This document shows, in pieces, positions 10,700-37,595 of a stretch of 52,833 nt of DNA. Origin of the DNA: Candidatus Micrarchaeota archaeon (GTDB lineage Archaea; Micrarchaeota; Micrarchaeia; Anstonellales; JAHKLY01); NCBI GenBank assembly GCA_020854825.1, contig JAHKLY010000005.1, positions 1 to 52,833 of the forward strand. Reading direction: 5' to 3'. The notes below the pieces were generated by a model. The model did no database searches, had not been told where the DNA came from, and saw nothing but the letters and a program-made list of their open reading frames with translations. The stretch's first letter is position 1. The number at the start of each line of letters is the position of its first letter. A program made the translations under genes and the position numbers.

Positions 10700-10909
10700 C
10701 GCCGAGGGAGGGATTTTCATACACCAAGTTTCTTTCTTGGTACAGCTTCTTTCTTTTTCCAAAGAAAGAAGGTGTTTGAACCCCCATGTCCGTGAAGACA
10801 CACGATTTCTTGTTTTGTTTTCTTTTCTTTGTTTAAACTTTCTCTTCTTTTTCAAAAGAAAAGAAAGGTTATTCCAGTCGTGCGCACTACCAGATTATGC
10901 GACCTCGGC
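10700..10909 (-). tRNA. tRNA-Ser(GGA) with two introns (37/38: 10807-10871, 65 nt; 59/60: 10714-10774, 61 nt)
   Basis: GCCGAGG/CCTCGGC acceptor stem; CACGA-CTGGAA|A-TCGTG anticodon arm; long variable arm; GGTTCAAA|TCCC T-arm; T-loop splice helix TTCA/TGAA. Confidence 0.92.
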
Positions 10910-11118
10910 ATTAATATGACGAGAATTACAAAACGAATGTTTTGTTTGACCTCGGCATCAATGTAATATATGACGAGGGATTTTCATGAAATGAAAACTG
11001 ACCTCGGCATTAATGTAATATATAACGAGGGATTTTCATGAAATGAAAACTGACCTCGGCATTAATGTAATATATGACGAGGGCTGTAAAAACAAAGTTT
11101 TTACTTAACCTCGGCATT
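10910..11118 (-). repeat. Four tandem hairpin units in the tRNA-Ser 5' leader, each repeating the tRNA 5' end
   Basis: ATGCCGAGGT recurs with the G1 equivalent at 10956, 11008, 11060 and 11115 (periods 47/52/52/55); each is followed by a hairpin and (C/T)CTCGT(C/T)AT. Confidence 0.92.
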
Positions 11119-11186
11119 ACTATCTATATATGTAAAAATTATATAAATAAGACTTTAAAAATTGAATGGTAGGAAAGAATATGAAT

Positions 11187-12005
11187 TCAAAAAAAACCTG
11201 GTTCTTCAATCCCAAAATGTTTTTTAAGTTTAGTAATTATTCCTATCGTTTCCCTATTTAGATTTTGTGCTCTTGATGGAGTATATCCATATCTTTCTTC
11301 ATAAAATGAAGGAACTCTAGAATAAAAGTTAGTTTTTGCTTTATAAATATGTTTAAAAATTTTTTTTGAATAATCTGAAAAATCAGTCATAAAAAGGAAC
11401 TCTTGTTCTATATAATCATTTAATGCCCATTCTAATCCATAGCCTACTCTTCTTCTTAAAGATTTTTTACCAGTTTTAGTTGTATAAACTCCAGAAACAA
11501 TATACTCCCATTTAATATCAATTTGTTTTTCATCTAAAATTGGAGCTAATGCAGTTGCTCTTAATGCTCTTTGACCACTACAAAATAAAGAACATCCATC
11601 TACTGTTCCAATTGTCATATTTATTTCTGGTTGTGTTAATATTGGACTAACAAGTAGGTCTATTTGATTTTCTGAAATATCTACTAAATCTGCATCTAAA
11701 ATTAAAATTACGTCTGCGCCCATTTGATAAGATGCTTTTGCTGCGCAGTAAAACGCATATGATTTTCCATAATTTTTAGGTAAAACCATATTAATAAAAC
11801 CAGGATTTTCTAAATAAACTTCTAACTCTTTTTGAGAATTATCTATTGATCCATCATTAATAGCAATTACATTATCTATTTTCCCTTTTGCAATCATATC
11901 AATTAAAGGATTAAGTACATCATGTAAATTTTGTGCCTCATTATACACAGGCACAATCGCTATTATTCGGTTAAACTTTTCTTTAGATATTCTTTGTGAA
12001 TTCAT
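11187..12005 (-). CDS. GT2-family glycosyltransferase
   Basis: IVPVYNE, INDGSID, NYGKS, LDADL, SGQRA. Confidence 0.88.
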   Translation of the reverse strand: MNSQRISKEKFNRIIAIVPVYNEAQNLHDVLNPLIDMIAKGKIDNVIAINDGSIDNSQKELEVYLENPGFINMVLPKNYGKSYAFYCAAKASYQMGADVILILDADLVDISENQIDLLVSPILTQPEINMTIGTVDGCSLFCSGQRALRATALAPILDEKQIDIKWEYIVSGVYTTKTGKKSLRRRVGYGLEWALNDYIEQEFLFMTDFSDYSKKIFKHIYKAKTNFYSRVPSFYEERYGYTPSRAQNLNRETIGIITKLKKHFGIEEPGFF

Positions 12006-12081
12006 ATAAAAGATGTGTTTTTATGTGTTTATAAATGTTTGTATAACTAGATAAAATAAAAAAGGAATAAAATAAAAAAAG

Positions 12082-12145
12082 TATTAGTTTTCTTTTCTTT
12101 TTGTTAATTTTTTCTTTTCTTTTTTAAAAAGAAAAGAAAAAGTTA
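12082..12145 (-). repeat. Free-standing copy of the TTTC/GAAA hairpin element found in the tRNA introns
   Basis: TAAC-TTTTTCTTTTCTTTTT/AAAAAAGAAAAGAAAAAA-TTAACAAAAAGAAAAGAAAAC closely resembles the Ser 37/38 and Gly 15/16 introns. Confidence 0.7.
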
Positions 12146-12448
12146 ATCTAAAGTAATTCTTACGTATACATCATCAGGAACTTTAACACGCATAATTTGT
12201 CTTAAGGTTCTTTCATCTCCTTTTACATCTATGAGACGCTTATGAATACGCATTTCCCAATGTTCATAGGTTTCAGTTCCATCCCCACAAGGACTTTTTC
12301 TTGTTCCTACTTTCATCTTTTTAGTAGGTAATGGGATTGGTCCTTTTATTGGAACTCCTGTAATTTTAGCAATTTCAACTATTTGATTACAAACATCCAT
12401 TAATTTGTCTGGATCCTTACCTATGAGTTTTATACGTGCATTTGCCAT
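12143..12448 (-). CDS. rps10: 30S ribosomal protein S10
   Basis: [28 protein letters not shown]. Confidence 0.97.
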
Positions 12449-12456
12449 AGAATCAC

Positions 12457-13728
12457 TTATTGTTTTTTAGGTTCTACTTCTAATACAACTCCAGCTGCAA
12501 CGGTTTGTCCCATATCTCTGATAGCAAATCTACCTAATGGACCATAATCTTTGTATGTTTCAACGACAACTGGCTTTAGAGGTTTGAACTTAATTATTGC
12601 AATATCTCCTGTTTTTACAAAATCAGGATTTTGAGCTGCTGTTGCACCTGTTTTAGGATCTTTTTTCTCCAAAATTTCAATTACTTGACATGGTAATTGT
12701 GCTGTGTGGATATGGAATACAGGAGTATATCCTTTTCCAATAGCTGTTGGATGATCTAAAACAACAACTTGTGCTGTGAATGTTTCAGCTACTGTTGGTG
12801 GCCTATCTGCTGGTCCAACAACATATCCTCTTTTTATTGCATTTTTATCTACTCCTTTAAGATTAAATCCAATATTATCTCCAGGTCCTGCAGAGGATAA
12901 TTCTTGATGATGCATTTCCATTTTCTTTACATCAGACTTTACTCCAGAAGGCATAATTGAAATAGCCATCCCTGGTTTTATTACTCCTGTTTCAACTCTA
13001 CCTACTGGAACTGTTCCATGTCCTGTGATTGTAAATACATCTTGGATAGGTAATCTCAAATCCTTGTCAATTGGCTTTGGTGGAACTACAAAAGTATCTA
13101 ATAATTTTACTAAACAATCTCCTTTATACCAAGCCATATTTTCACTTTTTGCTGCGATATTGTCTCCTTTATACCCAGAAATTGGAACAAAATTTATTTT
13201 ACTAACATCATATCCAATGGATTTTAACATTTTAGACATTTCTTCTTTAATTTCATTGAATTTCCCTTCATCATAATTTACTACATCCATCTTATTAACT
13301 GCGATCATAATTTGATTTATACCTAATACTTTTGATAAGAAAGCGTGTTCTTTTGTTTGTGGCATTGGACCTTCTCTTGCTGATACAACTAAAACTGCTG
13401 CATCTGCTTGGGAAGCACCTGTAATCATGTTCTTAACAAAATCTCTATGCCCAGGGGCATCAATAATTGTAAAATAATATTTATCTGTTTTGAACTCTTT
13501 ATGATTTACTTCAATTGTAACTCCTCTCTCTCTTTCTGCTTTCAATGTATCCATAGTATAAGCAAACTCAAAAGTTGCTTTACCAAATTTTTCTGCTTCT
13601 TCTTTTAATTTTTTTAATTGTTGTTCTGGTAATGCCTTAGTATCAAATAGGATTCTACCTACTGTAGTAGACTTACCATGGTCGACGTGACCAATAAAAA
13701 TTAAATTCATATGTTCTTTCTCTGCCAT
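12457..13728 (-). CDS. tuf: Translation elongation factor EF-1alpha
   Basis: [47 protein letters not shown] before ATG 13728. Confidence 0.98.
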
Positions 13729-13851
13729 TAATAGCACCTCCACTTTATATTTTTTGAAAAAAACTTCTAATAGTTCTGCAAATACGACAGAATTTAGTGT
13801 ACTTAATTTAACTATAAGTATTTAAAAATGTTTCGTAAGGTTTTCTAACCT

Positions 13852-36598: not shown

Positions 36599-36763
36599 AA
36601 AAATGCAGCGACATTTTAATGAAATTAAATGTGTCCTTTTTTGCTAAAACGAAAAATGCGGCGCTATTTGATATAATCAAATGCGCCAATTTTTCATTGA
36701 TAAATGAAAAATGCGGCAACAATTTAACAAAGTTAAATGTGCCCTTTTTACCGAAGGTAAAAA
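36599..36763 (-). repeat. Three double-hairpin units in the tRNA-Gly(GCC) 3' trailer, each repeating the tRNA 3' end
   Basis: GC(C/T)GCATTTTT recurs with the discriminator equivalent at 36712, 36657 and 36604 (periods 52/55/53). Confidence 0.92.
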
Positions 36764-36932
36764 TGCGGCGGCCGGGATTTTCTCCCTGTTGACATGATTC
36801 ACGTCAACCAAAGTTTCGAATTCTCGGACCTACAGGATTTTCCCTAAATTTTCTTTTCTTAAAAGAAAAGAAAGGCCACCCGGGACTCAACGTTGGCAAC
36901 GTCGTATACTAACCAGACTATACTACCACCGC
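36764..36932 (-). tRNA. tRNA-Gly(GCC) with two T-arm introns (53/54: 36821-36878, 58 nt; 59/60: 36778-36814, 37 nt)
   Basis: GCGGTGG/CCGCCGC acceptor; CGACG-TTGCCAA-CGTTG; T-arm rebuilt as CCGGG|TTCGAA|TCCCGG; boundaries may shift by 1 nt. Confidence 0.88.
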
Positions 36933-36955
36933 ATTTATGAATATACTCTTACTAA

Positions 36956-37010
36956 TTTCTTTTTTTTTTGATTAAAATTTTTCTTTCTTTTTTAAAGAAA
37001 GAAAAAGTTT
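36956..37010 (-). repeat. Free-standing TTTC/GAAA hairpin element
   Basis: AAAC-TTTTTCTTTCTTT/AAAGAAAGAAAAA followed by an A-rich tail, distal to the Gly(TCC) trailer array. Confidence 0.65.
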
Positions 37011-37122
37011 AAAATGCGGCGCTATTTGATATAATCAAATGCACCAATTTTTGCCAAAAGGCAAAAAATGCGGCAACAATTTAACAAAGTTAAATGTGCC
37101 CTTTTTACCGAAAAGGTAAAAA
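37011..37122 (-). repeat. Two double-hairpin units in the tRNA-Gly(TCC) 3' trailer
   Basis: GCCGCATTTT at 37069 and 37015 (period 54); near-copies of the two proximal Gly(GCC) units. Confidence 0.92.
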
Positions 37123-37265
37123 TGCGGCTGCCGGGATTCGAACCCGGGTCGTTGGCTTGGAAGGCCAGCATCCTAACCAGATTGTCCAAACTCCTTTCTT
37201 GGTTCTTTCTTTTGTTTAAGCTTTTCTTTCTTCCAAGAAAGAAAAGGTTACTAGACTACAGCCGC
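37123..37265 (-). tRNA. tRNA-Gly(TCC) with a 69-nt D-loop intron (15/16: 37182-37250)
   Basis: GCGGCTG/CAGCCGC acceptor; CT-TCC-AA loop; GGTTCGAATCC; splice motif GTCT-AG|T...GGAC-AA|T. Confidence 0.92.
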
Positions 37266-37312
37266 AATAAACACACTTTATTTATATTACCCTTATCACC
37301 TATTAATTTATA

Positions 37313-37394
37313 CATTTTTACTTTGTTTTCTTTCTTGTTTTCTTTTTTTTAGTACGGATTTTTCTTTCTTTTTTGAAAAGAAAGAAAAAAGTGC
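37313..37394 (-). repeat. Free-standing TTTC/GAAA hairpin element
   Basis: TTTTTCTTTCTTTT-CAA-AAAAGAAAGAAAAA plus purine tail, closed by CATTTTTGC/GTAAAAATG pairing with its 5' flank. Confidence 0.65.
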
Positions 37395-37453
37395 AAAAAT
37401 GCCACGCTATTTGATAACAATCAAATGCGTGCTTTTTTACCAAAGGTAAAAAA
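37395..37453 (-). repeat. Double-hairpin unit in the tRNA-Phe 3' trailer
   Basis: CGTGGCATTTTT duplicated at period 54; same hairpin types as the Gly units. Confidence 0.9.
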
Positions 37454-37595
37454 TGCCACGGGCCGGATTTTCATATACCCCGTTTTCTTTTTGGGGTGAA
37501 GACCTTTTTCTTTTTCTAAAAGAAAAAGGGATTCATTTGAACCAGCGACACCTCCGTCTTCAGCGGAGTGCTCTCCCAGACTGAGCTACCGCGGC
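37454..37595 (-). tRNA. tRNA-Phe(GAA) with a 68-nt T-loop intron (59/60: 37468-37535)
   Basis: GCCGCGG/CCGTGGC acceptor; CTCCG-CTGAAGA-CGGAG; GGTTCAAA|...TGAAAA|TCCGG. Confidence 0.93.

Follow-up and report, generated by a model that had tools for sequence, protein, structure and literature searches.

Transposition of tRNA introns has been described in Thermoproteales (Fujishima et al. 2010, via PMC4033280 and bioRxiv 10.64898/2026.10.13.758758). In ARMAN-2 (Candidatus Micrarchaeum acidiphilum), 56% of the tRNA genes are disrupted and the epsilon2 splicing endonuclease cleaves relaxed motifs (PMC3239211). Disrupted and incompletely predictable tRNA sets occur in several DPANN lineages (PMC5829648), and a census of Asgard archaea reports repeated gains of tRNA introns and, in the parts available, gives no route of arrival (bioRxiv 10.64898/2026.10.13.758758). 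All statements made here on these papers hold for the parts of them that were available. The question of how tRNA introns reach new sites in archaea is still open. Here, a hairpin cassette present in introns of several tRNA genes is analyzed in a 52,833-nucleotide stretch of DNA (the window), which is contig C1 of the 7-contig, 828-kb genome of a Micrarchaeota-like archaeon (28% G+C, 97.6% complete).

The evidence suggests that these are probably protein-spliced introns, which would be handled by an epsilon2 tRNA splicing endonuclease (EndA) and the RNA ligase RtcB, and whose shared cassette has been copied among tRNA sites, into the flanks of tRNA genes and onto the 3′ ends of protein-coding genes. 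A preliminary description of the window had listed five introns with a common pyrimidine/purine hairpin followed by a purine-rich tail or a second hairpin, had regarded two of them (Ser 37/38 and Gly 15/16) as homologous, and had proposed an active mobile family with a retargeted splice helix. The two sequences quoted there are each found exactly once, on the minus strand (10822–10871 and 37205–37250), and neither is expected in 100 shuffles.

Interrupted tRNA genes and their splicing

On the raw window, ARAGORN called no tRNA, and Rfam gave two tRNA fragments and the large-subunit (LSU) rRNA above cut-off. After introns were removed by coordinate, all five window tRNA genes, each on the minus strand, became full-length ARAGORN calls: Ser(GGA), Phe(GAA), Gly(TCC), Gly(GCC), and Asn(GTT). 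The tRNA-Ser(GGA) gene (10700..10909) has two introns, at 37/38 (10807..10871, 65 nt, an exact match to one quoted sequence) and at 59/60 (10714..10774, 61 nt). The tRNA-Phe(GAA) gene (37454..37595) is interrupted at 59/60 (37468..37535, 68 nt), and the tRNA-Gly(TCC) gene (37123..37265) at 15/16 (37182..37250, 69 nt, containing the other quoted sequence exactly). The tRNA-Gly(GCC) gene (36764..36932) is called only with both of its T-arm introns removed, at 53/54 (36821..36878, 58 nt) and 59/60 (36778..36814, 37 nt); they enclose a micro-exon of 6 nt (36815..36820, T-loop positions 54–59) that is required for restoration of the T loop. The same two-intron layout around a micro-exon is present in tRNA-Pro(GGG) of ARMAN-2 (PMC3239211). 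Splicing at the five positions of the preliminary description (Ser 37/38, Ser 59/60, Gly(GCC) 53/54, Gly(TCC) 15/16, and Phe 59/60) therefore restores tRNAs; its list was right about Gly(GCC) 53/54 but lacked the second intron of that gene. The tRNA-Asn(GTT) gene (20024..20132), with a 37-nt intron at 15/16 (20081–20117), provides a contrast case: neither this intron nor Gly(GCC) 59/60 has the cassette, and both are unlike the hairpin introns in pairwise comparison. Against the curated families of Rfam, the window introns (37–69 nt) gave no match to self-splicing group I or II introns or to any other family.

At these introns, the four intron letters before the last two pair with four exon letters ending 2 nt upstream of the 5′ splice site. 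This central helix is paired at all four positions in Ser 59/60 and Phe 59/60 (both TTCA/TGAA), Gly(TCC) 15/16 (GTCT/GGAC) and Asn(GTT) 15/16, and at three of four in both Gly(GCC) introns and in Ser 37/38 (CTGG/CAAG). The view that the terminal 4-mers CAAG and GGAC each complement their own exon is borne out by these pairings. In the minimum-energy precursor folds, a 3-nt bulge that separates the central helix from the T stem contains the 3′ splice site in each of the 59/60 introns of Ser and Phe; the 5′ splice site occupies a 3-nt unpaired stretch in Phe, which is canonical, and is relaxed in Ser. Judged by the predicted folds of the Ser, Phe, and Gly(TCC) precursors, the window introns would be relaxed bulge-helix-bulge or bulge-helix-loop substrates and not strict ones. 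Relaxed motifs (hBH/BHL) are cleaved in vitro by the epsilon2 enzyme (PMC3239211). Genome-wide, 51 of the 61 introns in 34 auto-validated gene models end in AA, compared with a dinucleotide background of 0.148. We infer that the introns are excised in vivo.

The genome contains a single EndA gene, a 414-residue open reading frame (ORF) on contig C3, which aligns colinearly with the ARMAN-2 enzyme (4FZ2_A; E 2e-136) over residues 3–387 of 395 and comprises two catalytic PF01974 domains plus PF02778. In this alignment, conservation extends to the Tyr160-Lys161 pair of the ARMAN loop and to the catalytic residues Tyr236, His251, and Lys282, all of them named as essential in the 2025 structure paper on ARMAN-2 EndA (PMC12397907). 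The type of EndA, a question raised by the preliminary description, is assigned from this full-length alignment as the three-unit, ARMAN-2-type epsilon2 splicing endonuclease. Homologues are present in 40 of the 41 genomes of the order at E ≤ 1e-10, about 36 of them full length (about residues 20–414), including genomes with intact tRNA sets. Since full-length epsilon2 EndA is widespread whatever the intron load, the enzyme appears to be permissive and not the cause of that load. The RtcB ligase gene lies in the window itself (3685..6369, plus strand) as one open frame of 937 residues; PF01139 profile positions 1–50 match at 3685–3843 and positions 46–426 at 5200–6369. The in-frame insertion of ∼1.35 kb between profile positions 50 and 46 could be an intein.

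A census with a purpose-written intron-aware parser, checked by ARAGORN after splicing, mapped 40 tRNA genes in the genome, 38 of which are interrupted by a total of 70 introns (one in 14 genes, two in 16, and three in 8). Arg(GCG) and one Met(CAT) gene are intact. The set is incomplete because ∼45 tRNAs are expected, and a 22-bit Rfam match at C4:101430 has no gene model. Introns of the auto-validated models are located at 59/60 (13), 37/38 (12), 58/59 (12), 53/54 (6), 56/57 (2), 29/30 (1), 36/37 (1), and in the D arm (14); the median intron length is 62 nt. By comparison, ARAGORN with intron options reported 9 tRNAs in the whole genome, several of them mis-assigned, and Rfam 7 over cut-off, which illustrates that standard tRNA finders overlook nearly the entire tRNA set in genomes of this kind. 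A listing of GC islands was also tried as a tRNA locator and was dropped as too noisy.

The cassette and its copying among tRNA sites

An alignment of 28 copies gives the order of parts in the cassette: a flank (most often TAACC), a pyrimidine arm, a loop of 2–5 nt, a purine arm, a linker of ∼8 nt, and a purine tail. One arm of the 9–16-bp stem is all-pyrimidine and the other all-purine, and the flank pairs with the first half of the linker. In introns, the 5′ splice site lies 1–5 nt upstream of the cassette, and a 3′ adaptor ends in the exon-complementary 4-mer plus AA. RNAalifold on the MAFFT alignment gave only 6 pairs, and the hairpin structure was therefore set by hand. In this structure 86.5% of the cells are paired, changes on both sides of a pair number 39 compared with 14.4 ± 3.1 in shuffles (0/500 reach the observed value), and the true register outscores every slid register. 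Strict hairpins (pyrimidine and purine arms, stem ≥9 bp) occur 7 times in the window and 0–2 times in 30 first-order Markov simulations.

The cassette alignment was turned into a covariance model (R1), which matched 46 loci in the genome after removal of reverse-strand shadows. Such a genome-wide search had been suggested for the window introns and, together with the covarying hairpin, it shows one modular element to be common to introns. Four of the five introns named earlier are recognized by R1 at E ≤ 0.01: Ser 37/38 (56.6 bits, E 1.2e-7), Gly(TCC) 15/16 (53.8 bits), Phe 59/60 (48.2 bits), and Ser 59/60 (41.5 bits). Gly(GCC) 53/54 has a strict hairpin (36849–36874) but a degenerate tail, and gave no R1 match at this threshold. 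The purine-rich tail or second hairpin seen earlier is present in a more specific form. Ser 37/38 contains the TAACC flank, the pyrimidine/purine hairpin, the linker, and a purine tail that mirrors the purine arm, whereas in Ser 59/60 the hairpin is followed by a second hairpin exposing the mirror purine tract in its loop. Across the census, 33 of the 70 introns have an R1 match at E ≤ 0.01, distributed over the T arm (18), the anticodon arm (8), and the D arm (7); in all 33 the best match lies on the strand of the tRNA, as the counting procedure requires.

The tail follows a mirror rule. Among 41 asymmetric cassettes, the tail was better explained by the mirror image of the purine arm in 31, by a direct copy in 3, and equally by both in 7, with 24 perfect mirrors and 5 perfect direct copies; the margin per copy is often a single match and the copies are related by descent. 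The tail usually starts 6–8 nt past the purine arm, and the rule spans about ten arm patterns. It also holds for 10/10 asymmetric copies from other genomes of the order (margins 1–3) and for 38 of 44 copies from other species, with none direct and 6 ties. The mirror image of the purine arm is the parallel complement of the pyrimidine arm; Watson–Crick pairing between the pyrimidine arm and the tail reaches 81% in the intended register, and the mirror explains the tail better. The cassette thus has the arrangement of a triplex-type mirror repeat, a homopurine tract mirrored beside a complementary pyrimidine tract, and at the level of sequence its symmetry is that which an intramolecular purine-motif triplex would need. 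In 1994, Semerad and Maher reportedly found RNA strands to be disfavored in purine-motif triplexes; a triplex, if there is one, might accordingly be made by the DNA and not by the intron RNA.

The five hairpin introns of the window resemble each other beyond mononucleotide shuffles (z 3.3–6.9; 0–1 of 500 reach the observed value), and the two hairpin-less introns show no such excess. A second null, the block shuffle, kept every purine or pyrimidine run in place and left the flank and linker motifs largely intact. In the pairwise family analysis, which covers the 68 introns with coordinates, 20 introns fall into families of at least 80% identity across two or more tRNA genes, compared with 0 in mononucleotide shuffles (5/5 runs) and 0–4 in block shuffles. 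At ≥90% identity, 10 of the 68 still form families across tRNA genes and both nulls give 0; at 70%, block shuffles already link 16–27 of the 68. One of the ≥80% families joins Ala(TGC) 37/38, the D-loop introns of Gln(CTG) and Leu(TAA), and Glu(CTC)/Glu(TTC) 53/54. Its members have a near-identical core, and their last 10–15 nt vary and complement the local exon. The retargeted splice helix proposed from the window is therefore found genome-wide, as near-identical cores joined to different exon-matching 3′ adaptors. None of the five window introns belongs to any ≥80% family. Similar introns are thus shared across tRNA species above the null expectation, and one family occupies different positions, as is characteristic of transposed introns. 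Of the proposed active mobile family, copying between tRNAs and positions is supported by the 80% and 90% families, which exceed both nulls, but current activity is not.

A different 89-nt sequence forms a second family of T-loop introns, in Ala(GGC) (C3:226723-226811, minus strand) and Leu(TAA) (C4:81265-81353, plus strand); the two copies are at least 90% identical, are unrelated to the cassette, and lack the pyrimidine/purine hairpin. The 37/38 intron of tRNA-Pro(GGG) is ∼209 nt long (C2:5222-5430, plus strand, hand-set coordinates). It begins with a cassette that is close to two non-intron copies, and a trailer-like hairpin in it is also found at C5:38469. The D stem of this tRNA is weak, like that of ARMAN-2 tRNA-Pro (PMC3239211).

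Taken as a mechanism, the introns would be cut by epsilon2 EndA and their exons joined by RtcB, while copies of the cassette would pass between different tRNAs, at D-loop, anticodon-loop, 53/54, and T-loop sites, and would also reach tRNA flanks and the 3′ ends of protein genes. Site specificity would reside outside the cassette, in the 5′ splice site upstream of it and in the short 3′ adaptor. By folding on its own, the hairpin may prevent mispairing between the intron body and the exons. The cassette may be copied as DNA, when recombination or template switching occurs at the hairpin and mirror repeats; such copying would have led to a genus-level burst that interrupted 38 of the 40 mapped tRNA genes. 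The strict sense orientation may reflect selection at the RNA level.

Several observations weigh against this explanation. The central helix of Gly(TCC) is missing from its minimum-energy fold, and the strict bulge-helix-bulge motif is incomplete, with the outer intron helix not adjoining the central helix. The pairing of the central helix in the 61 auto-validated introns (45 at 4/4 and 16 at 3/4) is partly circular, because the parser selected for it. Four of the 40 gene models, those for His, Ser(TGA), Pro, and Trp, had been mis-assigned by the parser and were corrected manually on the basis of the sequence and of an ARAGORN call for His; the Tyr model is provisional. In the 97.6%-complete genome, neither a reverse transcriptase (PF00078) nor a Y1 (HUH) transposase (PF01797) was matched at E ≤ 0.1. 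Four orthologous tRNAs share 6 of 7 intron positions with those of a congener, and much of the pattern is therefore inherited. Finally, when window intron pairs were compared with block shuffles, 3 to 354 of 500 reached the observed value. The homology claimed for Ser 37/38 and Gly 15/16 was not upheld by this comparison (z = 1.4, 49/500). Likeness beyond composition, on which the preliminary description had staked its case, is thus established for the genome-wide families but not for window pairs set against block shuffles. Since these shuffles are not clearly beaten, the homology of the window copies has to be argued from the family model and from the motifs in flank and linker; what the five introns demonstrably share is the architecture together with these motifs.

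Copies outside introns, relatives, and competing explanations

The cassette is not intron-specific, because 13 of the 46 R1 loci lie outside mapped introns: five in tRNA flanks, two at a locus on contig C7, and six distal to tRNA genes. The picture of an intron family drawn from the window thus fits 33 of the 46 loci but not these 13. Five of the six tRNA-distal copies start at the stop codon of a long ORF that has the same orientation (105–892 codons). Judged by their C-termini, the stop-abutting ORFs look like DnaK, thermosome, uS10, and stalk protein P1, with one ORF of 892 codons. The window example (12078..12148, minus strand, R1 53.3 bits) has the TAA stop codon at offset 3, and its first letters include the stop of a co-oriented 107-codon uS10-like ORF. 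Two of the five tRNA-flank copies are also in the window, in spacers on the minus strand, one between tRNA-Phe and tRNA-Gly(TCC) (37327..37397, 61.7 bits, conserved in the congener) and the other upstream of tRNA-Gly(GCC) (36946..37014, 58.3 bits). The possibility that the post-stop copies are mRNA introns was considered and rejected, as the five ORFs have natural-looking C-termini and are followed by promoter-like AT-rich DNA. The C7 locus (C7:6290-6560, minus strand) has two cassettes in G+C-rich sequence that is not recognizable as a tRNA, and one flank resembles the anticodon-arm intron of tRNA-Glu(CTC). No Rfam match was obtained at C7:5800-7000 or C7:9300-13300.

These placements raise a serious possibility, if not quite an even chance, that the cassette is a general genome element, a punctuation module at transcript 3′ ends with REP-like placement, which introns have merely captured. 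The 13 loci outside mapped introns, the five of six distal copies on stop codons of co-oriented ORFs, and the copies behind tRNA 3′ ends in this genome and in relatives are all consistent with it, as are relatives with mostly intact tRNAs that nevertheless carry copies (7 in G034 and 10 in G040). On the other side, 33 of the 46 loci are within introns, all 33 in sense orientation, and no transposase of the Y1/RAYT type was found in the 97.6%-complete genome. The pyrimidine arm has T5 runs, which in a terminator should impede transcription in archaea, yet the cassette sits inside about half of the tRNA introns. A general element of this kind would refine the explanation by protein-spliced introns with a copied cassette and would not exclude it.

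Further repeats adjoin the window tRNA genes. Upstream of tRNA-Ser and tRNA-Phe (∼10910–11010 and 37596–37650, minus strand) there are one or two mini-helix units each, in which the 5′ acceptor strand of the same tRNA, copied with a T added, is followed by a hairpin and then by a near-copy of the 3′ acceptor strand. The hairpin common to the units, TTTTCAT...ATGAAAATCC, mimics the 3′ end of a T-loop intron. The Ser units are strongly conserved in the congener and exceed the T-loop intron in this respect. Behind the three clustered tRNAs, the 3′ trailers (37015–37122, 37398–37453, and 36650–36763, minus strand) are tandem units in which the last 6–7 letters of the tRNA recur ahead of a T run and a small hairpin; the congener has more of these units behind tRNA-Phe than the genome studied.

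The number of tRNA matches that Rfam gives varies between 7 and 63 among the 41 genomes of the order. At least 30 are found in 23 genomes and fewer than 20 in 9, which include the genome studied (G000, 9 matches) and its congener of the same genus (G001, 12 matches). Intron positions are thus not fixed across the order, given 23 genomes with at least 30 intact-tRNA matches compared with 9 matches in G000. The model search was also extended to related genomes, as had been recommended. R1 matched 13 of the 41 at E ≤ 1e-4, with 37 loci in G000, 36 in G001, 10 in G040, 8 in G004, 7 in G034, and 1–5 in the rest, and 11 genomes of a 151-genome sample of the phylum at E ≤ 1e-6. In relatives, the cassette is found in D-loop and anticodon-loop introns of tRNAs, in tRNA flanks, and in apparent 23S rRNA introns (L031 in G010, L033 in G033, and L034 in G007, the rRNA being recognized by eye). 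The LSU rRNA of the window (42436–45411) matches its model end to end with no large insertion.

With one genome taken per species, the commonest hairpin occurs exactly in at least 111 stretches. Among the matches listed, the labels of the metagenome-assembled genomes, which may be imprecise, are Micrarchaeota, Altiarchaeota, Diapherotrites/Iainarchaeum, Pace-/Woesearchaeota, Methanobacteriota, 'uncultured archaeon', and some bacteria. Of 80 listed loci, 44 match full-length R1 at ≥55 bits and all of these are archaeal; the bacterial loci among the matches listed score 30–49 bits and are mostly hairpin only. The flank/linker stem covaries among the copies from other species, and their genomic contexts recur.

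Comparison with the congener bears on an account in which old introns are inherited vertically and their bodies are homogenized by gene conversion or concerted evolution, with no new sites. Both introns of tRNA-Ser occupy the same positions in G001; the 37/38 introns are ∼93% identical, as estimated from the alignment, and the T-loop intron is far more diverged. The Phe-Gly-Gly cluster is syntenic. Phe 59/60 is occupied in both genomes by different cassette subfamilies, and the Gly(TCC) 15/16 intron and the double Gly(GCC) intron are present in both, the 6-nt micro-exon with one change. These shared positions favor descent, as do the near-identical flanking exons of the T-loop families, which would allow conversion, and the match of the 59/60 and 53/54 + 59/60 positions to those of the distant ARMAN-2 (PMC3239211). 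Descent without new sites nevertheless appears unlikely. The ≥80% family spans D-loop, 37/38, and 53/54 sites, where the flanking exons differ; 23 of the 41 order genomes have at least 30 intact-tRNA matches; and copies occur outside tRNAs. In addition, the comparison of orthologous tRNAs suggested in the preliminary description yielded one difference, an intron at Gly(TCC) 59/60 that is present in G001 and not in G000 and closely resembles the G000 Phe intron, an unpolarized gain or loss.

Four DNA sequencing runs gave no clean intron-less allele of this organism, and their contigs break at repeats. A 35-kb contig of run X6 matches the 5′ part of tRNA-Phe (window 37535–37597) with 2 differences in 63 nt and runs directly into a T arm and acceptor end with no intron; it may derive from another organism. 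At locus L029 (G040), ∼20 nt of the region from the T arm to the 3′ end of a tRNA lie on both sides of the cassette, and at L094 the first 15 nt of a tRNA are repeated upstream of it. These two loci hint that partial duplication of a tRNA end may trap the cassette.

Convergence of low-complexity sequence under selection for stable stems at 28% G+C, without common descent, would fit the window pairs that do not clearly exceed block shuffles and the linking of introns by these shuffles at 70% identity, but is highly improbable in view of the ≥90% families (10/68 introns, 0 in both nulls), the conserved and covarying outer stem of flank and linker, the mirror rule (31 vs 3, 10/10, and 38 vs 0 across about ten arm types), and the excess of window hairpins over Markov simulations (7 vs 0–2).

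A broader idea, put forward tentatively, is that a pan-DPANN cassette with three arms (the pyrimidine arm, its reverse complement, and the mirror of the latter) folds into a three-stranded structure within one molecule that is functional and copy-prone, and that it seeds tRNA and rRNA introns in different phyla without an element-encoded enzyme. Such a fold, in single-stranded DNA or RNA, could act as an autonomous fold within introns and as a cap at transcript 3′ ends.

Relation to known systems

The lineage offers an unusually tractable case for the question of how introns reach new sites. A sharply defined unit of ∼65 nt occurs in near-identical copies at three kinds of tRNA site with different adaptors, two congeners differ by one intron, and copies exist outside introns as well. 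Donor, target, and junction rules are therefore readable from sequence, and they can be tested with the already crystallized ARMAN-2 enzyme. The mirror-repeat rule also leads to a definite prediction about structure, which would tie the spread of introns to non-B nucleic-acid structure and not to a transposase. Transposition of tRNA introns is already known, and the cassette is apparently undescribed: full-text literature searches gave no description of it, supplements, which may hold intron sequences, not being covered.

Bacterial REP/BIME elements are small palindromic hairpins that occur in large numbers and in a set orientation just behind genes; they have a short conserved flank and are associated with RAYT transposases. 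The cassette resembles them in being a short oriented hairpin with a conserved flank that is placed after genes. It differs in its archaeal host, its presence in tRNA introns and apparent rRNA introns, its third, mirrored arm, and the lack of any Y1/RAYT-type gene found in the 97.6%-complete genome. Intramolecular purine-motif triplexes (H-DNA) are formed by homopurine/homopyrimidine mirror repeats; the likeness of the cassette to these, a homopurine tract mirrored after a short spacer beside a complementary pyrimidine tract, is one of sequence alone.

ARMAN-2 shares with this genome the epsilon2 EndA, relaxed 59/60 introns, the 53/54 + 59/60 pair around a micro-exon, and the weak D stem of tRNA-Pro. 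Its proportion of disrupted tRNA genes is 56%, compared with 38 of the 40 mapped genes here, and the introns used in ARMAN-2 assays are 13 and 25 nt long, compared with a median of 62 nt (PMC3239211, PMC12397907). The available parts of these two papers do not mention a shared intron cassette.

The transposed introns of Thermoproteales are the closest described parallel, as similar introns occur there in different tRNAs and at different positions of one genome, the endonuclease has a broad specificity, and many genes have up to three introns. The present case lies in another phylum and involves an epsilon2 enzyme instead of the (alpha-beta)2 form. Unlike in Thermoproteales, as far as the available parts of those sources extend, the shared part is a three-part cassette with mirror symmetry, which is also found behind stop codons, in apparent rRNA introns of related archaea, and in genomes labeled as other DPANN phyla.

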